Source: an uncultured Candidatus Saccharibacteria bacterium (GTDB taxonomy: Bacteria; Patescibacteriota; Minisyncoccia; Phycocordibacterales; Zambryskibacteraceae). From it: a stretch of DNA of 64,000 nt. This document shows, piece after piece, positions 25,701 through 58,830 of this stretch (positions are counted from its first letter, which is position 1; the number at the start of each line of letters is the position of its first letter). Below the pieces are notes generated by a model. The model ran no database searches, was not told where the DNA came from, and saw only the letters and a list, made by a program, of their open reading frames with translations. The position numbers and the translations under genes are program-made. The stretch is taken from NCBI GenBank assembly GCA_964608585.1, contig CAZSOL010000001.1:75666-139665 (forward strand), read 5' to 3'.

Positions 25701-26072
25701 ATGAAAACCAATATCAAAGCAACCAATATAGAGCTGACGGAAGCCATTAGAGAGTATGCAATGAAGAGGTTATCTAAGTTGGACAAATATTTAAGCGATG
25801 ACGTTGTGGTGTCCGTAGAGCTTGGCAAGACCTCTGACCACCACAAACAAGGAGATATCTTTAGGGCTGAGGTTCAAGTGTTGGGAGATGGTTTGGATCA
25901 TTATGCTTCTCGTCAGTCAGATAATTTGTATACAGCAATAGATCAAGTAGAGGGTGACATCGTCCAAGAGGTTACCAAAGACAAGAGCAAGAAACGCCAA
26001 CTATTGAGAAGAGGTGAGAGAGCTATCAAGGATATGATGAGAGGCTTTCCTTGGTTTGGCAGGAAGAGTTAG
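25701..26072 (+). CDS. hpf: Ribosome hibernation-promoting factor (RaiA/HPF family)
   Basis: MKTNIKATNIELTEAIREYAMKRLSKLDKYL; 123 aa. Confidence 0.8.
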   Translation: MKTNIKATNIELTEAIREYAMKRLSKLDKYLSDDVVVSVELGKTSDHHKQGDIFRAEVQVLGDGLDHYASRQSDNLYTAIDQVEGDIVQEVTKDKSKKRQLLRRGERAIKDMMRGFPWFGRKS

Positions 26073-26788
26073 TGCTTGCCTCGCAGGTAGTCCTTATAAA
26101 CCATCTCCTTCTTACCTGGGGGGATAACTCTGTCTAACACAAGCTTACCGTCTTCAATATGTGCATCAGTGACAATGAGATCTCCAAGACGTGCTCTAGG
26201 CCAGACTTCGTAGGCACGAATCTTTCTTAAAGCTTGCTCTGGGGTGTCGTTGGTGATATCCGAGTCCTCCTTCTTTATCATCTTGGTATAAGTTGCAAGA
26301 GAGTCATCTTGAGACACTTCTTCTATCTCACCACTCAACCACTTGGGTAGTACTTCTGCTAAGAGTTCTCCTCCTGACTTACCGAGTAATTCCTCAGCCT
26401 TAGAGTAGGGTGTTGGGTCTTCTGGCATCTCAACTTCTCTTTGAGCTAAGACAGGACCTTGGTCCATCTTTTCGTTTAAGCGCATAATACTGACACCAGT
26501 CTTCTCACCAGAGAGTATTGCTCCTTGTATAGGAGCTGGGCCACGAAGTTTGGGCAGGAGGGATGGATGAACGTTTAAGGTTTTGAACTTTGGTTTATAT
26601 ATGAGTGACTCTGGTAGTATTTTGCCAAAGGAGGCTACTACATAGACATCTGCATCAGGTATTTCTGGTAGTGGTCCCTTGGCTTTGTTTATGCAAAGTT
26701 TGGGTTCAAAACCTTTTTCTCGCAAAGTGTTCAAAACGTATTCAGAAAACTTAGAAGAGCCAAAGAAGACAAAGTCTATGTTACTCAT
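26069..26788 (-). CDS. fmt: Methionyl-tRNA formyltransferase, compact (239 aa from the MSNIDF start)
   Basis: NVHPSLLPKLRGPAPIQ catalytic motif; def-fmt synteny; start taken at the second in-frame Met to avoid overlap with def. Confidence 0.8.
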   Translation of the reverse strand: MSNIDFVFFGSSKFSEYVLNTLREKGFEPKLCINKAKGPLPEIPDADVYVVASFGKILPESLIYKPKFKTLNVHPSLLPKLRGPAPIQGAILSGEKTGVSIMRLNEKMDQGPVLAQREVEMPEDPTPYSKAEELLGKSGGELLAEVLPKWLSGEIEEVSQDDSLATYTKMIKKEDSDITNDTPEQALRKIRAYEVWPRARLGDLIVTDAHIEDGKLVLDRVIPPGKKEMVYKDYLRGKH

Positions 26789-27317
26789 GATGTTTGTGTG
26801 GAGGTAAGTCCTCAAGGTCAGACGCCTTGTCGGTAAAGAGAACTCCGTCTAGGTGGTCAACTTCGTGTTGGAAGATTTGGGCCAAGAGTCCAGAGGCCCC
26901 CCTCGCCACCTTGTTGCCATGCTCGTCCAACGCCTTGATACTAGCTCTTTCGTGGCGCACCACCTTGCCGTAGAGCCAGCGCACAGAGAGACATCCTTCC
27001 TCCATGCTCTTCTTCTTTTTTGAGAGCTTGGTAATCTCTGGGTTGATGAAGACAAGATCTGGATAGACCTTCTCTTTGTCCTTATCTTTCATCGCTTGGA
27101 CTTGGCCAGAGACCACGAAGATCCTTAGACTCTCACCAATCTGAGGGGCTGCTATAGCTACCCCGTCCTCCTCTCTATGCATGGCGATCTTCATCCTTTC
27201 TATGATGTTTTGGATCTTTTTGGTGCCAATAACTTTTTGGGGTACTTCCTTAGCTATCTCCCTTAGGACGGGGGAGTCTTTTTGCAAAATCTTTGTCTTT
27301 TTTGTTTCTTTTGGCAT
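26781..27317 (-). CDS. def: Peptide deformylase
   Basis: GVAIAAPQIG, EGCLS and HEVDHLDG motifs. Confidence 0.9.
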   Translation of the reverse strand: MPKETKKTKILQKDSPVLREIAKEVPQKVIGTKKIQNIIERMKIAMHREEDGVAIAAPQIGESLRIFVVSGQVQAMKDKDKEKVYPDLVFINPEITKLSKKKKSMEEGCLSVRWLYGKVVRHERASIKALDEHGNKVARGASGLLAQIFQHEVDHLDGVLFTDKASDLEDLPPHKHHE

Positions 27318-29164
27318 TAGAGGATACTCTCAGGATCTACTTTAATCAAAAAGTCTGGAGTTAGCAAAAGGAGTTTGTCCAAAAGATTTTTGTCTGGCCA
27401 GCCCTCTTTCTTTAATCTTATTATCATGGACAGAGTTTCTACATCCTTGCCACCTCTCTTACCGAGTATAAAGTGGGGTTCATACTCTAGGAAGTTGCTC
27501 TTGAGCTCGGCTGAAGCTCTCTCTAGTCTACCTCTTTTACCCTCCAAGCTTACTTTGATAAAGATGGAGAAGGGTGGGTACGACAACTCCTCTCTATCTT
27601 TGATCTCTTCTCTATAAAAGTCTAAGACATTACCAGTGGCAGCATTCTTTAGTATCTGAGCACCGGCGTTCCTTGTTTGGATGAGGAAGTTGTCCTTACT
27701 CTTCTCTCTTAGGTGGGTTATGAGGTGGAAGATTTTCTCGTTTATAAGGAAGTCGGGTATAGAGAAGAGAGGGTCTAAGGATACTACTCCGATTAGAGAG
27801 ACCTTCTTTATGTTGCTTAGGGCGAGCTCTGTGCCTACGAGGATGCTACCTTTGGAGCTTTCAAACTTCTTTAGAGTTTCTTTGACCTTACTTTTTGTGT
27901 TTGTTGTATCTTTGTCTATTACAAAGACGTTAGTCTCTGGGAAGTGGGTTTGGCACTCCTCAACGATCTTGTCTATGCCAATACCTAAGGGGTTCAACTT
28001 CCAGCTTTGGCAAGTATCGCATCTTGTCTCGGTACTTCTTTTGGCCCCGCAATGGTGGCAGAGATAAGTGTCTTTGTGCAAGACAAGAGGAGCCGAACAG
28101 TTCCTACAAAGGAGTAGTGAGGCACAATCCCCACAAATGGTTGTGGGGGAGACTCCTTTGCGTACACCAAAGAGGAAGACATTCTTACCGTCGGTTAAGG
28201 TTGCATTTATTGAGGCCACGAGCTTGTCGGAGATAACTTGGAAGTCTTTCTTCTCCCGCATGTCCATAACCTCAACATTTGAGTCAATCTTTTGTCTCCA
28301 AGAGATGGGGGTTAGCTCTGTATAATGCCCTTCTCTTTCGTGCCATAAAGTCTCTATAGAAAGAACTGAATCTCCTAGGATCAAATTAGCTCCAGAGCTC
28401 TTAGAGTAATACTTCAAAAAGGTTTTGAAGTTTATATATGGTCTAGAGAGAGTTCTGTAAGCTCTTGAACTTTCTCGCTCTATGATAAAGGTTCTTAAGT
28501 CTGTACGACTAAAGGAGGCAAAAAGCGGTGTAGTAATAAAAAGTATTGGATGCTTCTCATCCTGTGCTTTGTTTAGCACCTTACTTAACTCTTTGGGTTT
28601 AGCCAAGGTTGGGGTATAGACGAAGTCTTCTATACCCATTACAAGTTCCTCCTTAGCCAAGACAGCGTCATCGTTGTTTGGGACGACAAAGAGCACCGAG
28701 GACCCCTTGGCAAAACTCTCTCTAATAACTCCTCGGTATTCCCTGAAGCGCTCACTAATCGGAAGTTGGATAACCTTTATATCTCTGACTCCAGTCTTCT
28801 TAACGTTTATAGGCTTGCCTAATAGACTTGGATCATCAAGCAGTTTTTTTGCTAAGACTACACTCAGTACACTGCCAATAGTTGTTGCATAGTATTCCGC
28901 TGTTTGCTCTATAGCTTTGAGTAGCGAGGGGGGGATACCGCTTGATCCATTGGACAAAGAGATCTTCTTCAAGCTGAAGTCGGCCTTCTTTATAGAGCTT
29001 TTGGCTAGACGAGCGTCCTTTGACCCCACAACAAGTCCTTGAGAGTAGCCATTTCTAACTGGTATTCTCACGAAGCTTCCTAGAGGGAGCTTGTCCTTAC
29101 TAAAGTAGCTTAGAGTCGCCTTGGTGATGCCTTTAACTATGGGTATAACCTCAATGACTCGCAT
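27317..29164 (-). CDS. priA: Primosomal protein N' (PriA) homologue with degenerate helicase motifs I and II
   Basis: N-terminal 3'-DNA-binding domain; zinc ribbon CGDC...CRNC...CHHC...CDTC; C-terminal domain; Walker A position reads FAKGSS and DEAH position reads IIERESS; priA-def-fmt synteny. Confidence 0.75.
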   Translation of the reverse strand: MRVIEVIPIVKGITKATLSYFSKDKLPLGSFVRIPVRNGYSQGLVVGSKDARLAKSSIKKADFSLKKISLSNGSSGIPPSLLKAIEQTAEYYATTIGSVLSVVLAKKLLDDPSLLGKPINVKKTGVRDIKVIQLPISERFREYRGVIRESFAKGSSVLFVVPNNDDAVLAKEELVMGIEDFVYTPTLAKPKELSKVLNKAQDEKHPILFITTPLFASFSRTDLRTFIIERESSRAYRTLSRPYINFKTFLKYYSKSSGANLILGDSVLSIETLWHEREGHYTELTPISWRQKIDSNVEVMDMREKKDFQVISDKLVASINATLTDGKNVFLFGVRKGVSPTTICGDCASLLLCRNCSAPLVLHKDTYLCHHCGAKRSTETRCDTCQSWKLNPLGIGIDKIVEECQTHFPETNVFVIDKDTTNTKSKVKETLKKFESSKGSILVGTELALSNIKKVSLIGVVSLDPLFSIPDFLINEKIFHLITHLREKSKDNFLIQTRNAGAQILKNAATGNVLDFYREEIKDREELSYPPFSIFIKVSLEGKRGRLERASAELKSNFLEYEPHFILGKRGGKDVETLSMIIRLKKEGWPDKNLLDKLLLLTPDFLIKVDPESIL

Positions 29165-29190
29165 GATTGCCTCATTATAGCGGAGGAGCT

Positions 29191-31418
<2,228 letters not shown>

Positions 31419-45352: not shown

Positions 45353-48037
45353 ATGAAGGAGTACGACCCAAAGGATATAGAAACCAAGTGGCAGGCGGAG
45401 TGGGAGAAGAGTGGAATATACAAAGCCAAAGGAAAGGGGGAGAAGTATTACTCTCTTATTGAGTTCCCGTACCCTTCTGGAGACGGGCTTCATGTAGGTC
45501 ACCCAAGGCCTTATATAGGTATGGATGTTGTCTCTAGGAAGAGGCGTATGGAGGGTTACGACGTGCTTTACCCCATAGGTTGGGACGCCTTTGGTCTTCC
45601 TACGGAGAACTATGCCCTAAAGACTGGCAAAGACCCAAGACAAGTTACTAAAGAGAATTCGGAGAACTTCAAAAGACAGATAAAGTCTCTAGGCATATCT
45701 TTTGACTGGTCTCGTGAGGTGAACACCACTGACCCCAAGTACTACAAGTGGACGCAGTGGCTCTTCCTTAAGTTTTTGGAGGAGGGCTTGGCTTATAAAG
45801 CCAAGATGCCTATCAATTGGTGCCCAAAGGACAAGATTGGTCTTGCTAATGAGGAGGTGGTGGATGGTAAGTGCGAGAGGTGTGGTACAGAGGTAGAGCT
45901 AAGAGAGCGTGAGCAGTGGATGCTCAAGATTACTGCGTACGCAGAGCGACTCCTTAAAGACTTGGACGAGGTAGACTACCCCGAGCGAGTGAAGGCTCAA
46001 CAGAGGAATTGGATAGGCAAGAGCGAGGGCGCGCTTATAAAGTTCGACGATATCGAAGTATTCACAACTCGACCCGACACCATATACGGAGCAACCTTTA
46101 TTGTTGTGTCTGGCAAAGAGGATAGATTTACTGGTAGGTATGTGACGAACCCCGCCACGAAGGAGAAGATTCCCGTCTGGGAAGCAGAGTACGTACTCTC
46201 TGACTATGGCACCGGAGCTATTATGGCTGTACCTGCGCACGATGAGAGAGACTTTGAGTTTGCTAAGAAGCACGATTTGCCTATAAAGGAAGTGGTTATC
46301 GAGAGGATGATAGATAAAAGTAATCCTCACGTAGAAGGAAAGAAAATAATTTTTAGAGACGCAATTATTGCAGCAGTTAGGAATCCTAAGGACGGCAAAT
46401 ACATTTGCTTGAAGTGGAAGAAGCAACCATGGACCACCTTTGTCATGGGAGGTATTGAGGGAGAAGAGGATCCTGTTGTTGCAGCATTGAGGGAAGTCAA
46501 AGAAGAAACTGGATATAAAAATATAAAACATATACAAACTCTAAAGGATGCACAGTCTGAGTTTTTTGCTGCACATAAGGATGTAAATAGGGTAGCTCAC
46601 ACAAGAAACTTAATCTTTGAGCTAATAGACGAAGAGCGCGAGGAAATCTCGAACGAGGAAAAGGATACCCACGAGATAGTCTGGATGTCTGTTGATGAAA
46701 TTTTGGCTACCAAGATGACCCACAGTGAGATGCCGATATTTGTGGATTGGTTTAACGGGACAAGTAACCCCTTTGTAGGTATTGGTGTGTTAATAAATTC
46801 TGGTAAGTTTGATGGCTTAGAGTCGGAAGATGCTAAGAAGAAGATTACTAAGGCGGTTAAAGGCGAGTGGGTTACAAAGTTTAAGCTTAGAGACTGGGTC
46901 TTTAGCCGTCAGAGATATTGGGGAGAGCCTATACCAGTCATCCTTTGTAAGAAGTGCGGGATAGTGCCAGTACCAGAGAGTGACCTACCTGTAGAGCTTC
47001 CAGTTGTGGAGAAGTACGAGCCGACAGAAACAGGCGACTCCCCACTAGCCAAGATTGAGAGTTGGGTCAATGTGAGATGTCCACTTTGTGGTGATAAGGC
47101 CAAGAGAGAGACAGACGTAATGCCCAACTGGGCTGGCTCCTCTTGGTACTTCATGCGCTATACAGACCCAGAGAACGATAAGGAATTCGCTTCCAAGAAG
47201 GCCTTGAAGCACTGGATGCCAGTAGACTGGTATAACGGTGGCATGGAGCACACGACTTTGCACCTCTTGTACTCAAGATTTTGGAACAAGTTCCTCTTTG
47301 ATTTGAAATTAGTGCCTACAAGCGAGCCATACAAGAAGCGCACCTCACATGGACTCATCTTGGCAGAGGGAGGAGAGAAGATGAGTAAGTCCAAAGGCAA
47401 TGTGGTGAACCCAGACGATATTGTAGATCGTTTCGGTGCGGATACCTTACGACTCTACGAGATGTTTATGGGCCCATTTGAGCAGGCTATAGCTTGGAGT
47501 GAGTCTAGTCTTGTCGGACCAAGGCGTTTTATAGAGAGGGTGTGGAAGTTGAGAGGCAAGGTTGGTGAGGTAGAACCAAGCAACTTTCTAATGCACTCCA
47601 CAATCAAGAAGGTATCAGAAGACATAGAGAGCATGGGCTTCAACACAGCCGTATCTGCCATGATGGTTTGGGCTAATGAGTTAGATAAGAGGGAGGTTGT
47701 CTCTAGTGTTGAATATGAGACCTTACTCAAGCTTCTCTCTCCTTTTGCTCCACATGTGACAGAAGAGCTTTGGGCTAACCTTGGTCACAAAGAGTCTATC
47801 CATGAGAGTGAGTGGCCAAAGTGGGAAGAGAAGTATTTGGTCCAAGACGAGGTAACTATAGCTGTACAGATAAACGGGAAGGTGAGAGGGAAACTTGTAG
47901 TTTCTAGGAATACAGAAGAAGCAGAAGTAGAGAAGTTGGCTAAGCAACTACCAAATATTCTTAAGTGGATAGAGGGTAAAGATGTGAAGAAAGTGATAGT
48001 CGTCCCTCAAAAAATAGTAAATATTGTTATCGCTTGA
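45353..48037 (+). CDS. leuS: Leucyl-tRNA synthetase with an embedded Nudix hydrolase domain and a drastically shortened CP1 editing region
   Basis: HVGH (HIGH-type) and KMSKS; LeuRS blocks WCPKDKIGLANEEV, TTRPDT, GTGAIMAVPAHDERDFEFA, RDWVFSRQRYWGEPIP; Nudix box GGIEGEEDPVVAALREVKEETGY at about aa 366-388. Confidence 0.9.
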   Translation: MKEYDPKDIETKWQAEWEKSGIYKAKGKGEKYYSLIEFPYPSGDGLHVGHPRPYIGMDVVSRKRRMEGYDVLYPIGWDAFGLPTENYALKTGKDPRQVTKENSENFKRQIKSLGISFDWSREVNTTDPKYYKWTQWLFLKFLEEGLAYKAKMPINWCPKDKIGLANEEVVDGKCERCGTEVELREREQWMLKITAYAERLLKDLDEVDYPERVKAQQRNWIGKSEGALIKFDDIEVFTTRPDTIYGATFIVVSGKEDRFTGRYVTNPATKEKIPVWEAEYVLSDYGTGAIMAVPAHDERDFEFAKKHDLPIKEVVIERMIDKSNPHVEGKKIIFRDAIIAAVRNPKDGKYICLKWKKQPWTTFVMGGIEGEEDPVVAALREVKEETGYKNIKHIQTLKDAQSEFFAAHKDVNRVAHTRNLIFELIDEEREEISNEEKDTHEIVWMSVDEILATKMTHSEMPIFVDWFNGTSNPFVGIGVLINSGKFDGLESEDAKKKITKAVKGEWVTKFKLRDWVFSRQRYWGEPIPVILCKKCGIVPVPESDLPVELPVVEKYEPTETGDSPLAKIESWVNVRCPLCGDKAKRETDVMPNWAGSSWYFMRYTDPENDKEFASKKALKHWMPVDWYNGGMEHTTLHLLYSRFWNKFLFDLKLVPTSEPYKKRTSHGLILAEGGEKMSKSKGNVVNPDDIVDRFGADTLRLYEMFMGPFEQAIAWSESSLVGPRRFIERVWKLRGKVGEVEPSNFLMHSTIKKVSEDIESMGFNTAVSAMMVWANELDKREVVSSVEYETLLKLLSPFAPHVTEELWANLGHKESIHESEWPKWEEKYLVQDEVTIAVQINGKVRGKLVVSRNTEEAEVEKLAKQLPNILKWIEGKDVKKVIVVPQKIVNIVIA

Positions 48038-49135: not shown

Positions 49136-50377
49136 ATGCTATTTGAAGTGTTCTCCCCTTTGTTCAATCAAACTTTTTTTTGGGAGTTTATTGATATTGC
49201 TAAGGTCAGTGCACCGGTATGGATCCCTGTATTGCTGGGAGCTGTTTTCTTCGAAGTTTGGATTAGTTTGAAGCAAAGAGAGTGGGTCGCCTCACAAGGA
49301 AGCGTACTCCTTGAGATAAAGTTGCCCAGAGAGCAGATGAAGTCTCCTGTGGCGATGGAGATGTTCTTAAACCACTTAAACCAAGGTGGGGTGGGAACAC
49401 TTCTTGATGTGTATCTTAAGGGTAGAGTGAGGACGTGGTTCTCACTTGAGCTTGTCAGTATTGGTGGAGCAGTCAAGTTTTATATATGGATGCACAAATC
49501 CCATCGTACAAGAGTAGAGGCCCAACTATATGCTCAGTTCCCCAATATTGAGATCCACGAGGTTGAGGATTATGCTATGAAGGTTGACCACAACCCAGAG
49601 AAGTGGAAGTTTGGTAAGTTGCTCCAGTTTACTCTCACTAAGCCCGATGCTTATCCGATAAAGACTTATGTTGATTATGGTTTGGACAAGGATCCGAAGG
49701 AGGAGTATAAAAACGATCCAATAGTTTCTGTTATAGAGTATCTTGGCTCTCTCAAGGCTGGTGAGCAGGCTTGGATACAAATACTTGTAAGATCACACGC
49801 TAAGGAAGGACTTAAGCTTGGTAGGATATTCGTCAAACCAGACTGGAAGAAGGCTGTTGAGAGTGAGGTCAAGAAGATTCTTAAGGAAGCTCGCTTTAAG
49901 GTAGATGAGGAGAAGGCTCCTAGTGGTCAACACATGTCGGAGGGCCAGAAGGATGTAGTAAGGGCTATAGAGCGGACTACAGGCAAGATTGCTTTTGACA
50001 CAATGATTAGAGCTTTCTACTTTGCAGAGAAGGATAGTTTTAACGGAGCAAGTATCGGAGGTCTTATCGGCACAATGACCCAGTATAATTCGGCATCTTT
50101 GAACGGTTTCAGGCCAGACTTTAGTGCTGATTATGACTATCCGTGGCAGGACCCCTTTGGCAAGAAGAGGTTAAGTAATGAGAGGAAGCTCCTAGAGGCA
50201 TACAAGAGGAGATCCTTCTTCGCTCCACCATTTAGAAACTTTAAGGGCAAACCTTTCATCCTTACAACAGAAGAGCTTGCTACAATCTTCCACTTCCCAG
50301 GAGAGGTGGCTGCTACACCTTCTCTCTCTCGCATACCTTCGAAGAAGGCCGAGGCCCCCTCAAACCTACCCATATAA
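49136..50377 (+). CDS. Membrane-anchored hypothetical protein (413 aa)
   Basis: N-terminal TM APVWIPVLLGAVFFEVWI; no recognised domain; conserved-looking C-terminal LTTEELATIFHFPGE. Confidence 0.4.
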   Translation: MLFEVFSPLFNQTFFWEFIDIAKVSAPVWIPVLLGAVFFEVWISLKQREWVASQGSVLLEIKLPREQMKSPVAMEMFLNHLNQGGVGTLLDVYLKGRVRTWFSLELVSIGGAVKFYIWMHKSHRTRVEAQLYAQFPNIEIHEVEDYAMKVDHNPEKWKFGKLLQFTLTKPDAYPIKTYVDYGLDKDPKEEYKNDPIVSVIEYLGSLKAGEQAWIQILVRSHAKEGLKLGRIFVKPDWKKAVESEVKKILKEARFKVDEEKAPSGQHMSEGQKDVVRAIERTTGKIAFDTMIRAFYFAEKDSFNGASIGGLIGTMTQYNSASLNGFRPDFSADYDYPWQDPFGKKRLSNERKLLEAYKRRSFFAPPFRNFKGKPFILTTEELATIFHFPGEVAATPSLSRIPSKKAEAPSNLPI

Positions 50378-54795: not shown

Positions 54796-56358
54796 ATGAA
54801 ATCAGAGGAAATACGTAAGCGGTTCTTAACCTTTTTTGAGAAGCACGGGCACAAGGTGGTGCCATCTTCACCCTTGGTGACAGACGACCCATCTGTCCTC
54901 TTTACCACCGCAGGCATGCAACAATTCAAGCCTTATTACTTAGGAAAGCCCTCTCCTTATGGGCAGAATGTCGTCTCTATACAGAAGTGCGTCAGAACTT
55001 CGGATATTGAGGAAGTGGGTGATGAGAGGCATCTAACCTTCTTTGAGATGCTGGGGAACTTCTCCTTCGCTGGATACTGGAAGGAGAAAGCCATCAAGCT
55101 TGCCCACGAGTTTGTAACCAAAGAGATGGGACTCACTATAGATTACGTGACTATATTTGAGGGAGAGGAGGGTGTACCAAGAGATGATGAGTCAGAAAGA
55201 ATTTGGAAGTCTATAGATCCAAACATAAAGATTAAAGAGTTTGGTCGAGCAGACAACTTCTGGGGCCCAACTGGGGAAGAGGGTCCTTGCGGTCCAACTT
55301 CAGAGATTTATGTAGGGGGTATAGAGATCTGGAACTTGGTCTTCAACGAGTTCTACCAGAACAAAGACAAAACCTTAAAGCCATTAGAGATGAAGGGGAT
55401 AGACACAGGCATGGGTCTTGAGCGCCTTGCGATGGTAGTACAAAAAGTTCCAACCGTGTTTGATACAGATTTGTTTGATAAACCAAAAACGAGAGAGGAG
55501 AGGATCGTTGCCGACCATGCGCGTACAGCTGTTTTTATGATTATGGATGGAGTTAGACCATCTAATACCGAACGAGGATATGTTCTAAGAAGAATTATTA
55601 GACGAGCCTTTGTTAATTCTAACAACTTTCCCGAAGCAACCCAAAGAGTAATTGATCTTTATGGTTTGGATAGTAAGGAGATCCTCACTGTTGTCCAAGA
55701 AGAGATACAGAAGTTTGCAGAAGCATTAGCACAAGGAACCAAAGAAGCAAAGAAGGGGGGCGACCCATTTATCCTTTTTACCTCTTATGGCTTACCACTA
55801 GAGATTATAAAAACAATTGGTATCAAAATTGACGAAAAGGATTTTGAAGAGAAGTTCAAAAAACACCAAGAGCTGTCTAAGGCAGGTGCAGAGCAGAAGT
55901 TTAAGGGAGGCTTGGCGGGGCACTCGGAGATTGAGGTTAAGTACCACACTGCTACACACCTCTTACACCAAGCACTTAGAGATGTTTTGGGGGCTGAAGT
56001 GAGTCAGAAGGGCTCCAACATTACTCCGGAGAGACTCCGCTTTGACTTCTCCTTCCCTCGCAAGATGACAGATGAGGAGAAGAAGAAGGTAGAGGAGATT
56101 GTAAACTCTAAAATAGAAGAGGCCCTGCCTGTAGAGAACCTCGTGATGAACAAAGAGGAGGCTATAAACTCAGGTGCACTGCACTTCTTTGACCAGAAGT
56201 ATCCAGATCAAGTCTCGGTCTACAAGATAGGCGAGTACTCCAAAGAGTTTTGTGGTGGACCTCACGTCAAGAACACAAGTGAGATAGGAAAAATAAAAAT
56301 AGACAAGGAAGAAGCCGTATCGGCAGGTGTTCGTCGTATCAAAGCTACGTTACAATAA
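54796..56358 (+). CDS. alaS: Alanyl-tRNA synthetase, compact 520-aa form (catalytic + tRNA-recognition + editing-type HxxxH/CxxxH motifs; no long C-terminal extension)
   Basis: FTTAGMQQFKPYYLG, WGPTGEEGPCGPTSEIY, editing-type HTATHLLHQAL and CGGPHV. Confidence 0.85.
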   Translation: MKSEEIRKRFLTFFEKHGHKVVPSSPLVTDDPSVLFTTAGMQQFKPYYLGKPSPYGQNVVSIQKCVRTSDIEEVGDERHLTFFEMLGNFSFAGYWKEKAIKLAHEFVTKEMGLTIDYVTIFEGEEGVPRDDESERIWKSIDPNIKIKEFGRADNFWGPTGEEGPCGPTSEIYVGGIEIWNLVFNEFYQNKDKTLKPLEMKGIDTGMGLERLAMVVQKVPTVFDTDLFDKPKTREERIVADHARTAVFMIMDGVRPSNTERGYVLRRIIRRAFVNSNNFPEATQRVIDLYGLDSKEILTVVQEEIQKFAEALAQGTKEAKKGGDPFILFTSYGLPLEIIKTIGIKIDEKDFEEKFKKHQELSKAGAEQKFKGGLAGHSEIEVKYHTATHLLHQALRDVLGAEVSQKGSNITPERLRFDFSFPRKMTDEEKKKVEEIVNSKIEEALPVENLVMNKEEAINSGALHFFDQKYPDQVSVYKIGEYSKEFCGGPHVKNTSEIGKIKIDKEEAVSAGVRRIKATLQ

Positions 56359-56362
56359 AGGA

Positions 56363-57532
56363 ATGGGTTTATTCTTTGGAAAGAAGAAGGGGAGAAATAC
56401 TTTGGTTCTAGATATTTCATCAGGATCTACATCAGCCGCTATTGTTTGTACACACAAGCAAGACATGCCTGAGATTATCACCAGAGTTAGAACTCCATAT
56501 TTTGTAAAAGGGGAGCCTAATGGCGAGAACTTGGAGAAGGCGATGCTTGCCTCTCTTAAGACCACGCTACAATTTGTCCTAGCTCAGACACCAACTCTCA
56601 AGAGCAGAGGTCTTGAGAGTAAGATTGATAAGGGGCTCGTAACCCTCTCCTCTCCTTGGGCAGACTCGTATCTCAAGACGGTCCATGTGGAGAAGGAGGA
56701 GAACTTCGTCTTTGATATGGAAGCGCTTATACAAACAATCAACGACGAGAGGGACGACTTCCAAAAGAAGTTGAAGGAAAACTTTGAGGAGGAGGGAGAG
56801 ATCTTTGAAGCGGCGGTGATGGATTTGTACCTCAACGGTTACTCAGCTCCTGCTCCAACTAAGGAGAAGGTTAAGGAAGTTGAGATAAGCTTCATCTTAA
56901 GTGCCACAACCAAAGAGTTTCTGCACAAGATAGAACTTGAGATATCAAAGTCTCTCGCTATAAATCATGGTGTAATCTTCCACAGCTTCCTCTTTGCCTT
57001 CTACAAAGTGCTCTCACACTCCTTTAGGAACTTACACTCAGCTCTGCTTATCAACATGAGTTCAGAGATCACCGACATCCTCTTCCTAAGACATGGTAAG
57101 TCTGCTATAAACGCATCTCTACCCTTCGGTCCAGCTACCATTGCAAGAAGCGTGGCAGAGAGACTCCGTATCCCTTTGGAAATCGCTTACTCTTACCTTG
57201 CCTTGTTTGCAGAAGGGTCGCTAGACAAGGCTACGACAGACTCTGTAGACGCTATTATTGTTGAGAGAGAGGATGAGTGGAAGGCCTTGTGGTCTAACCT
57301 CGGACAAAAGATCCAGAAGGAGACAGACGTACCGTACTCTATCTTCCTCGTGGTGCGTAGTAGCTTTGGAAGATTGATGGAGACGTTCCTCCAGAGTGTC
57401 TTCCCCAACAGAAACATTATTGTCGTTGGAGATACGAACACCTTTACCAAAGAGTTGGTGAGAGGAGATACAGAGAATATGGGCGATGAGAAGATCTTGA
57501 TCTTATCCTCATTCTCAAATATTTTGAATTGA
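56363..57532 (+). CDS. Actin-like ATPase fold protein (FtsA/PilM-like), hypothetical
   Basis: Phosphate-1-like LVLDISSGSTSAAIV and phosphate-2-like LLINMSSEITDILFL; start at MGLFFGK after the alaS stop. Confidence 0.4.
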   Translation: MGLFFGKKKGRNTLVLDISSGSTSAAIVCTHKQDMPEIITRVRTPYFVKGEPNGENLEKAMLASLKTTLQFVLAQTPTLKSRGLESKIDKGLVTLSSPWADSYLKTVHVEKEENFVFDMEALIQTINDERDDFQKKLKENFEEEGEIFEAAVMDLYLNGYSAPAPTKEKVKEVEISFILSATTKEFLHKIELEISKSLAINHGVIFHSFLFAFYKVLSHSFRNLHSALLINMSSEITDILFLRHGKSAINASLPFGPATIARSVAERLRIPLEIAYSYLALFAEGSLDKATTDSVDAIIVEREDEWKALWSNLGQKIQKETDVPYSIFLVVRSSFGRLMETFLQSVFPNRNIIVVGDTNTFTKELVRGDTENMGDEKILILSSFSNILN

Positions 57533-57546
57533 TATACAATTAGCTT

Positions 57547-58830
57547 ATGCCAAAGAAGATAGAAGACATCGTACCCTCAAATAGAAAATCAATTAGAGAC
57601 ATACCTGTGCCTGTTAGACGTTCTAGAGTTGAACCTCAAGAAGAAGCACCAGTGAGTTACTCTGCTCCTGTTATGCCCCCTCCTCTAGAGCCAAGGTTTA
57701 ACTACAATACTCCACTGCCAAAAGAGAGGAAGAAGAAGGGCTTCTGGGTTTGGTCTGGAGTCGTCTTGATACTTATCGCCTTCGCCTTTGTCTCACTTAG
57801 GAGCGGGGCAGTTGTTTCTTATAAGCCGAAGGTCTACTCTGTTGCCTTCGCTAATGAAGTTGTAAATGCTGGGCAAAATGCTACTACAAGTGTCATAGCC
57901 TATAGCACTATCAAGCTCTCAAAGGAGAAGAGTGCTGAGGTTGTCGCAAGTGGAGAGGAGACGGTATCTCTCAAGGCCCAAGGACAGATAGTTGTATACA
58001 ACGAGCAGTCCTCAGCTCAACAACTTATAAGTAGTACTAGGTTTGAGACTCCAGATGGCAAGATATACAGGATAGAGGAAGACATCACTGTACCGGCCAA
58101 CGGTAACTTAGAGGTTAAGGTAGTAGCCGATGTAGCTGGAGAAGAGCAGAACATAGGACTCTCAGACTTTACTCTCCCTGGACTCAAAGGATCTGCTCGG
58201 TTTGAAAAAGTTTTTGGTAGGTCTAAGACTCCTATGACCGGAGGCTTCGTTGGTACAAGGAAGAAGGTTGAAGCAGGAGACTTAGCCAAAGCCAGAACCT
58301 CTCTAGAGGAGATCTTGAGAAGCGAGCTGACCGCAGAGGTGGCTACTCAAGTTCCTTTGGACTTTATCCTCTTCCCAAATCTTGTAGAAGTAAGCTACGA
58401 AATGTTACCAGTAGAGAACTCTGGTACAAACATGGCTAGAGTTACCCTTAGGGGCAACTTGAATGCTGTGATATTTAAGAAGAACGACTTAGCTCTATTC
58501 TTGGCTATACAAAAGTTAGGAGCAAACAATATAGGTAGCGAGGTTACTATGCTAGACACCTCAAAGCTCAACGCCTCTCTAATAAATGGCATCCCAAGCC
58601 AAACAAGCTCCTCAACTCTAAAGGTCAACTTCATCGGCTCTACAGACATAGTTTCGGTCACAGATGAGAAAGCCTTGGCTCAAGATCTTCTAGGTAGGCC
58701 TAAGGCAGACCTCATCAACATCATAGAGGCTTATCCATCTATAAGTGAGGCTAGTGCCGTGATAAGACCCTTCTGGAAGTCGGTCTTCCCAACAGAGGAA
58801 ACAAAGATTAAGATAGAGGCACGTAGATAA
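57547..58830 (+). CDS. Bitopic membrane protein with a large extracytoplasmic domain, hypothetical
   Basis: Pro-rich cytoplasmic N-terminus, TM WVWSGVVLILIAFAFVSL, about 350-aa beta-rich ectodomain. Confidence 0.4.
   Translation: MPKKIEDIVPSNRKSIRDIPVPVRRSRVEPQEEAPVSYSAPVMPPPLEPRFNYNTPLPKERKKKGFWVWSGVVLILIAFAFVSLRSGAVVSYKPKVYSVAFANEVVNAGQNATTSVIAYSTIKLSKEKSAEVVASGEETVSLKAQGQIVVYNEQSSAQQLISSTRFETPDGKIYRIEEDITVPANGNLEVKVVADVAGEEQNIGLSDFTLPGLKGSARFEKVFGRSKTPMTGGFVGTRKKVEAGDLAKARTSLEEILRSELTAEVATQVPLDFILFPNLVEVSYEMLPVENSGTNMARVTLRGNLNAVIFKKNDLALFLAIQKLGANNIGSEVTMLDTSKLNASLINGIPSQTSSSTLKVNFIGSTDIVSVTDEKALAQDLLGRPKADLINIIEAYPSISEASAVIRPFWKSVFPTEETKIKIEARR

Follow-up and report, generated by a model that had tools for sequence, protein, structure and literature searches.

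The stretch of DNA analysed here (the window) comprises 64,000 nucleotides of contig CAZSOL010000001.1 (positions 75,666 to 139,665, forward strand; assembly GCA_964608585.1, labelled as an uncultured Candidatus Saccharibacteria bacterium). Its gene content is that of a typical Patescibacteria segment, with rpoB, rpoC, dnaG, rpoD, typA, fmt, def, priA, mreB, tgt, uvrB, uvrA, uvrC, ddl, leuS, alaS, mnmA and rpoA. The subject of this work is the priA open reading frame (ORF), whose 615-amino-acid (aa) product we call Parcubacteria PriA after the group in which its relatives are found. A first-pass annotation of the window had flagged the interval 28459-28762 (minus strand) and proposed that it belongs to a PriA with degenerate helicase motifs. 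The interval corresponds to residues 135-236 of the priA ORF and reads PISERFREY...FIIERESSRAY. The domain order of the protein is a 3' DNA-binding domain (3'BD), a RecA-like lobe 1, a lobe 2 into which a cysteine-rich region (CRR) is inserted, and then a C-terminal domain, which makes two superfamily 2 (SF2) lobes in a PriA-like fold. The features of the ORF, from the N-terminus to the C-terminus, are the following.

27317..29164, minus strand: priA ORF, 615 aa, stop codon included in the coordinates; PriA orthologue without ATPase motifs
28835..29164, minus strand: 3' DNA-binding domain, residues 1-110, with S19-Y20 (E. coli D17-Y18) and K67 (E. coli K61)
28781..28834, minus strand: short linker, residues 111-128 (18 residues), in place of the winged-helix domain
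28295..28780, minus strand: RecA-like lobe 1, residues 129-290, folded in the model, without motifs I, II and III
28745..28768, minus strand: former Walker A (motif I), Q133-LPISERF-140 against E. coli G224-VTGSGKT-231, with R139 at the Lys230 column
28676..28699, minus strand: retained motif Ia, S156-VLFVVPN-163 (family consensus S-V-x-F-x-V-P-T), aligned with canonical VPE
28469..28480, minus strand: former Walker B/DEEH (motif II), E229-R-E-S232, from HMMER and MAFFT alignments
28433..28468, minus strand: remodelled aromatic-rich loop, S233-RAYRTLSRPYI-244
28364..28378, minus strand: former motif III, L263-GDSV-267 (G264-D-S-V267) against canonical LGSAT
28145..28177, minus strand: retained motif IV, F330-LFGVRKGVSP-340; canonical NRRGFAP
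27995..28135, minus strand: CRR, four CxxC pairs from C344 to C385, then the S387-W-K-L390 patch
27821..27844, minus strand: retained motif V, I441-LVGTELA-448; canonical GTQM
27695..27724, minus strand: former motif VI, L481-ITHLREKSK-490, a 5-residue deletion that leaves H484-LREKS; canonical QVxGRAGR
27320..27664, minus strand: C-terminal domain, residues 501-615, shorter than in E. coli, within a full-length fold match to PriA

The proposed identity of the protein as PriA was borne out by profile, sequence and structure comparisons. Pfam PriA_3primeBD (PF17764) matched residues 15-104 with 29 bits (cutoff 22.7, E = 9.6e-7), in agreement with the N-terminal 3' DNA-binding domain that had been proposed. 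The PriA zinc ribbon (Zn_ribbon_PriA, PF18319) scored 25 bits, just below its cutoff of 26, and the four CxxC pairs named in the annotation are present as C344/347, C353/356, C369/372 and C382/385. The NCBIfam model TIGR00595 (priA) was matched with E = 1.9e-61, beginning at profile position 16. PF18074 (PriA_C) gave no match in Parcubacteria PriA itself and was recorded for family members P0238 and P0293; the fold match spans the C-terminus. A phmmer search against the PDB returned PriA chains exclusively, led by those of K. pneumoniae (E = 4e-31) and E. coli (E = 1e-26). The AlphaFold model, for which 72 relatives served as input, had a pLDDT of 87.5 and a pTM of 0.87. The top Foldseek matches to this model were E. 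coli and K. pneumoniae PriA (8fak, 6dcr and 4nl4; TM ~0.75, E from 8e-36 to 6e-32), one of which, 6dcr, is the crystal form of an engineered PriA with the winged-helix domain deleted. The runners-up, Mfd and DEAD-box helicases, were far weaker (E = 1e-8). The domain order and the predicted fold, together with the priA-def-fmt synteny described below, identify the protein as a PriA orthologue.

To place the motifs we aligned the protein with eight canonical PriAs from six phyla, those of E. coli (from NC_000913), Staphylococcus, Bacillus, Fusobacterium, Parabacteroides, Acaryochloris, Sinorhizobium and Neisseria. All eight contain GxT[GS]SGKT, DEEH, SATP and QVxGRAGR. The GxTSSGKT variant occurs in Parabacteroides (GVTSSGKT) and in the canonical match P0363, and the full GSATP is found in seven of the eight, Sinorhizobium having VSATP. 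In Parcubacteria PriA, motifs I, II, III and VI are all replaced or deleted, and the deletion in motif VI takes out the arginine fingers of GRAGR. The same sites were tallied in 267 relatives, which came from two sets, one of 120 clusters formed at 90% identity and one of 150 representatives chosen at 50% identity. The MAFFT run with 268 sequences put the P-loop of E. coli in an insertion, and the tally was therefore made by query columns; the register of K230 with R139 is backed by both the L-INS-i alignment of the panel and the HMMER alignment. A P-loop was lacking at the homologous site in every one of the 267 relatives. The residues that stand in its place were themselves strongly conserved: Q133 in 94%, E/D138 in 94%, R139 in ~100% and Y143 in 96% at the former Walker A; E/D229 in 100%, R/K230 in 80%, E231 in 96% and N/S232 in 87% at the former Walker B; and G264 in 81% and D265 in 95% at the former motif III. 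The arginine at the K230 column and the E-R-E-S at Walker B agree with the description of the Deinococcus-Thermus pseudohelicase, which has a lysine-to-arginine change and poor Walker A and B motifs (PMC4504706).

A conserved GKT or DExH elsewhere in the protein was searched for and not found, and [AG]x4GK[ST], GRxGR and a conserved DExH were absent from the whole protein and from the other frames of the same DNA. We asked whether the tetrapeptide DEKH (residues 202-205) might be a DExH box that had moved, and rejected the idea: it comes before a beta strand and not after one, its counterpart in E. coli is NGEAA, and relatives conserve its D and E poorly. Matches to GxxxxGK[ST] in relatives P0038, P0130 and P0200 lie at non-homologous positions and were set aside as chance matches. 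No family member matched Pfam DEAD, Helicase_C or ResIII in a search in which the canonical PriAs did. Judged by the alignments, the residues for phosphate binding, Mg2+ coordination and catalysis and the arginine fingers are missing.

Scoring of the helicase motifs against the PriA family thus found motifs I, II, III and VI degenerate, as had been suggested for three of them, although two had been looked for in the wrong place. The reading of the DEEH box as FIIERESSRAY was correct, this segment being aligned with E229-R-E-S232. The segment offered as Walker A, RESFAKGSSVLFVVP (RESFAKGSS...), is the end of helix 1 together with motif Ia (E. coli LENVLAQGKQALVMVPE), and the true site is Q133-LPISERF-140. 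Similarly, QTRNAGAQ, offered as motif VI, aligns instead with E. coli LQTHHPEH, and the true site is H484-LREKS. The conclusion that the motor is lost survives both misplacements because the true sites are degenerate as well. The first-pass annotation had missed the loss of motif III, the absence of the winged-helix domain and the conservation of this state across the clade under purifying selection.

The remaining parts of the protein were kept to different degrees. Lobe 1 is folded in the model, with a beta strand at 129-133, a helix at 136-152 and a beta strand at 156-160. It is the best-conserved part among canonical PriAs (46% identity across phyla) and the worst-conserved part between the family and canonical PriAs (17%); within the family it is on par with the rest of the protein (37%). 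This pattern fits a single ancient remodelling followed by renewed constraint. Motif Ia was retained in the 267 relatives (S156 100%, P162 96%, T163 82%), and so were motif IV (R335 98%, K/R336 99%, G337 100%) and motif V (G444 95%, T445 100%, E446 94%). Parcubacteria PriA also retains the TTP of Ib/Ic and, as motif Va, the D464...P470-D-F472 block. Motifs Ia, Ib/Ic, IV, V and Va are DNA-contacting motifs in SF2 helicases. In the 3' DNA-binding domain, alignment A1 shows no variation at Y20 or K67, and residue 19, at the E. coli D17 column, is S or T; the same column holds D, T or S in the eight canonical PriAs. In E. coli, D17, Y18 and K61 have roles in the pocket for the 3' end (PMC5778457).

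The winged-helix domain is replaced by a linker of 18-35 residues in the family, compared with 106-195 residues in the eight canonical PriAs. The E. coli winged-helix domain docks on the parental duplex 10-20 bp from the junction (PMC10175261), and we speculate that Parcubacteria PriA can do without the domain since it has no helicase left to direct. In the aromatic-rich loop, which in E. coli wedges into the fork junction (PMC5175346, PMC10175261), Y236 and R/K237 are kept and the E. coli W333 has become an invariant Pro242. Alignment A1 shows no variation at the eight cysteines of the CRR or at W388 and L390. The S387-W-K-L390 patch is specific to the family and occupies the position of E. 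coli S481-T482-H483 in the panel alignment, where T482 and H483 are PriB-docking residues (PMC10175261), and it is a candidate docking site for a partner. One relative, P0180, has lost several of the CRR cysteines.

Family alignments, the structure model, synteny and the literature agree with the core of the earlier proposal, that of a PriA which has lost the residues for ATP binding and hydrolysis and kept the parts for fork recognition. We consider it very probable that Parcubacteria PriA is a pseudohelicase form of the replication-restart initiator that acts as an ATP-independent fork-recognition scaffold. The genes on either side bear on this reading.

26781..27317, minus strand: def (peptide deformylase), immediately downstream of priA in the same orientation
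26069..26815, minus strand: fmt (methionyl-tRNA formyltransferase), downstream of def
29167..30222, plus strand: mreB, divergent, its start abutting the start of priA

The priA-def-fmt arrangement had been noted before and holds, with def and fmt directly downstream of priA. Of 71 related loci, 67 have def downstream of priA and on its strand, and 67 have fmt; in Bacillus velezensis the gene order is coaBC-priA-def-fmt-rsmB. The conservation of this order in the related loci and in Bacillus argues for orthology rather than paralogy. On the other side, 68 of 72 related loci have mreB upstream of priA, encoded on the opposite strand. The starts of priA and mreB (29164-29191) are separated by 2 nt if the longest ORFs are taken and by 26 nt in the public gene call; with the starts back to back, both promoters must lie inside the neighbouring coding sequence.

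Alternatively, the protein could be a neofunctionalised paralogue of PriA with a role outside restart, say in recombination or as a structural protein that binds DNA, while another protein carries out restart. The strong divergence of lobe 1 (17% identity to canonical PriAs), the lost winged-helix domain, the family-specific patch on the CRR surface and the score below the NCBIfam cutoff would all suit such a paralogue, as does the fact that 64 kb of the genome is visible. However, 67 of 71 genomes have the gene where priA was ancestrally located, upstream of def-fmt, as in Bacillus, and the parts that were kept are precisely the fork-recognition elements, namely the 3'BD pocket, the CRR cysteines and the DNA-contact motifs. 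No second PriA-like ORF was found in the 64-kb window or, by tblastn, in the flanks of the related loci. Moreover, E. coli can carry out restart with a PriA whose ATPase is dead, and in Deinococcus such a PriA is the natural form. We regard the paralogue as unlikely. The first-pass annotation had suggested looking for a compensating helicase. We profiled ~25 of the 54 ORFs of at least 150 aa in the window, and among these UvrB was the sole protein with helicase-type Pfam domains; Rep, UvrD, PcrA, RecG and DnaB were not among them.

The conservation of the replacement residues could also mean that they form a functional site, that is, that the protein has kept ATPase or helicase activity with Arg139 in place of the P-loop lysine and Glu229 and Glu231 in place of the Walker B acids. 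The persistence of acidic residues at E/D229 and E231 and of a basic residue at the Lys230 column is in line with this. The surroundings of these residues are not, since the glycine-rich loop that would wrap the phosphates is missing, and helix 1 reaches as far as residue 136 in the model, so that the loop following beta 1 has 2 residues. A basic R/K230 (80%) occupies the column of E. coli Glu321, the second residue of DEEH, and the arginine fingers of motif VI are deleted. In E. coli the K230R change alone kills the ATPase of PriA (PMC4504706, PMC5778457), and D. radiodurans PriA with the same lysine-to-arginine change has no measurable ATPase. A non-canonical active site is therefore very unlikely, and under the pseudohelicase reading the conserved acidic and basic residues of the old pocket may form salt bridges in place of the nucleotide.

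The distribution of the family and the substitutions within it indicated that the gene is maintained. We confirmed relatives in at least 504 GTDB species genomes, and the 80 loci that were retained from these are 37-63% identical over the best segment. Where the record titles are informative they name Parcubacteria, Paceibacterota, Zambryskibacteria, Taylorbacteria or Minisyncoccia, all of which are names from the Parcubacteria group within Patescibacteria; many other records have just generic labels of metagenome-assembled genomes (MAGs), such as 'uncultured Candidatus Saccharibacteria bacterium'. A search seeded with the divergent member P0233 showed a sharp gap between the family, at 236 bits or more, and canonical PriAs of Bacteroidota, at 146 bits or less. 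The eleven lowest-scoring family members were checked by alignment and all were without the motifs and the winged-helix domain, while the canonical Bacteroidota PriAs below the gap carry DEAD and Helicase_C domains. Within the family, P0357 keeps DEEH and P0351 keeps DEEN at Walker B as relics, with Walker A and motif VI gone.

An identical protein was found on two independent assemblies (P0001, 238-kb contig) and an 84%-identical relative, in the same gene order, on a third. Comparison with the latter gave pN = 0.09 and pS = 0.72 (saturated), and thus pN/pS ~0.13; pN was equally low in lobe 1 and lower still near the former Walker B. The low pN relative to pS shows purifying selection on the gene. 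That the motifs are missing because of pseudogene decay, or through an error of sequencing or assembly in one genome, is an idea for which nothing speaks beyond the missing motifs, and it is extremely improbable given the intact ORF of 615 aa, its occurrence on these assemblies, the same motif state in 267 relatives and at least 504 species genomes, the pN/pS ratio and the confident structure prediction. With the replacement residues themselves conserved, the motor-less PriA is a stable state and not decay.

Several points nevertheless weigh against the pseudohelicase reading. The TIGR00595 score of Parcubacteria PriA, 208.2 bits, is lower than the trusted cutoff of 230.35. The register of the former P-loop depends on the alignment, lobe 1 being ~17% identical to canonical PriAs and the MAFFT run having produced the insertion described above; the absence of the P-loop motif itself is independent of the register. 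No gene for PriB, DnaT, DnaD or a loader was seen in the 64-kb window. The search for a second priA and for a compensating helicase spans 64 kb of the genome, and a canonical PriA or such a helicase could lie elsewhere. Finally, ATPase loss, fork binding and primosome recruitment are predictions from the sequence.

If Parcubacteria PriA is a pseudohelicase, its mode of action may be pictured as follows. The RecA-like lobes would now be a static DNA-binding platform, on which Ia, IV, V and the basic/aromatic loop are kept. The pocket of S/T19, Y20 and K67 would bind the nascent leading strand at its 3' end, and the lagging-strand template would be held across the static lobes. The zinc-binding CRR would still gate the lagging-strand template and present a docking surface, from which the Trp388 patch, at the position of the E. 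coli PriB site, would recruit whatever loads DnaB in these organisms. E. coli PriA must unwind a duplex lagging strand before the CRR rotates and PriB docks (PMC13594977). Because Parcubacteria PriA would be unable to unwind a duplex lagging arm, its action is probably limited to forks and D-loops in which the template of the lagging strand is single-stranded, unless another helicase clears the arm. Two known cases indicate that a PriA of this kind could work. In E. coli, K230R and K230A abolish the ATPase, and primosome assembly and DnaB loading persist in the PriA-PriB pathway (PMC5778457, PMC10175261). D. radiodurans PriA, with lysine changed to arginine, neither hydrolyses ATP nor acts as a helicase, yet it binds single-stranded DNA, forks and DnaB (PMC4504706), and the literature thus bears out Deinococcus PriA as the precedent that had been suggested.

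Compared with the known forms of PriA, Parcubacteria PriA is closest in kind to the pseudohelicase of Deinococcus-Thermus (Lopper, Boone and Morrow 2015, PMC4504706). The two share poor Walker A and B motifs and an arginine at the catalytic lysine. D. radiodurans PriA has been found dead as an ATPase and helicase by experiment, and for the Parcubacteria form this is predicted. The Parcubacteria form, a small protein of 615 aa, has in addition lost motifs III and VI and the whole winged-helix domain, and its replacement residues Q-x4-E-R, E-R-E-N/S and G-D are conserved across hundreds of species. The two are thus of one kind, but the Parcubacteria form belongs to another group, which is far larger, and its loss is more extensive. 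Since the architecture differs (no winged-helix domain) and the phylum is distant, its origin was probably separate from that in Deinococcus-Thermus. With canonical PriA (4nl4, 6dcr, 6dgd, 8fak; TIGR00595) it shares the domain order, the 3'-end pocket, the eight cysteines, motifs Ia, IV and V and a TM score of 0.75; it differs in lacking motifs I, II, III and VI and the winged-helix domain, in having Pro for the Trp of the aromatic-rich loop, and in having an invariant S-W-K-L in place of S-T-H. The engineered ATPase-dead proteins of E. coli, priA300 (K230R) and K230A, the first of which carries the same lysine-to-arginine change, still assemble primosomes; these are laboratory point mutants of an intact motor, unlike the natural and extensively remodelled Parcubacteria form.

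Actinobacterial PriA (PRK14873 models), represented in our alignment by that of Tsukamurella tyrosinosolvens (WP_068739079.1), resembles the Parcubacteria form in being without GKT, DEEH, GSAT and GRAGR and in having ~40 residues at the place of the winged-helix domain. It is nevertheless a different sequence family with different replacement residues, and motif V is lost in Tsukamurella. Consistent with this, Parcubacteria PriA scored ~50 bits on PRK14873 models versus ~200 bits on PRK05580/TIGR00595 models. The Tsukamurella protein (L090:1940-3931, NZ_LR134460.1) reads ALPGEDWA at Walker A, WDDG for DEEH and GGFA for GSAT, and motifs V and VI are lost; by its sequence, Actinomycetota PriA looks like another pseudohelicase lineage. 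A further PriA, P0368 (L092:4001-6271, ENA ERZ25069326, on a 2.56-Mb contig; 54.6% GC over the 10-kb locus), has 756 aa and keeps the winged-helix region. Its motifs read GESPHDRT at Walker A (lysine to arginine), DHEE at Walker B, HSPHPT at motif III and QQAVGLL at motif VI, and no DEAD or Helicase_C Pfam match was found in it. It is a candidate for a further independent loss. Because the Tsukamurella and P0368 PriAs also lack the motifs, loss of the PriA motor appears to be recurrent. The main review describes helicase activity as conserved 'except in Deinococcus'. A literature search on PriA in the Candidate Phyla Radiation (CPR)/Patescibacteria found no relevant paper, and one on motif loss in actinobacterial PriA found no paper.

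These comparisons lead us to a broader and distinctly tentative proposal. The PriA motor may have been lost recurrently in at least four lineages, which are Deinococcus-Thermus, Actinomycetota, that of P0368 and the Parcubacteria group with more than 500 species genomes, and the Parcubacteria form could be a minimal ATP-independent initiator without a winged-helix domain, its pocket locked by Glu/Arg pairs and its Trp-centred CRR patch recruiting the replicative helicase or its loader directly, with neither PriB nor DnaT. Recurrence lowers the surprise of any single case and strengthens the general point. A motor gone across several hundred Parcubacteria species would concern a sizeable part of uncultivated bacterial diversity. 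If biochemistry bears out the loss of the motor, this would favour the view that PriA is needed above all for fork recognition and scaffolding and not for unwinding. Structural studies would gain a minimal PriA that occurs in nature, of 615 aa and without the winged-helix domain, and a partner that docks on the CRR would be expected in organisms without PriB or DnaT. In databases, members of the family are often 'hypothetical protein' in MAG records of NCBI and primosomal protein N' at JGI. With such labels and with scores below the NCBIfam (TIGR00595) cutoff, PriA is under-annotated in Parcubacteria genomes, and with it the replication-restart capacity of CPR genomes.

Some other ORFs of the window were noted. 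The plus-strand ORFs at 49136-50377, 56327-57532 and 57547-58830, of 401-427 aa, had no Pfam match at E = 1e-5. The alanyl-tRNA synthetase ORF (54796-56358, plus strand) encodes 520 aa with the catalytic domain and tRNA_SAD, without the usual C-terminal part. The leucyl-tRNA synthetase (LeuRS) ORF (45353-48037, plus strand, 894 aa) contains a NUDIX domain (PF00293, residues 335-466, E = 1.6e-15); to our knowledge no LeuRS-Nudix fusion has been described. The insertion lies within or just after the CP1 editing domain, and its Nudix box, GGIEGEEDPVVAALREVKEETG (residues 366-387), is intact.

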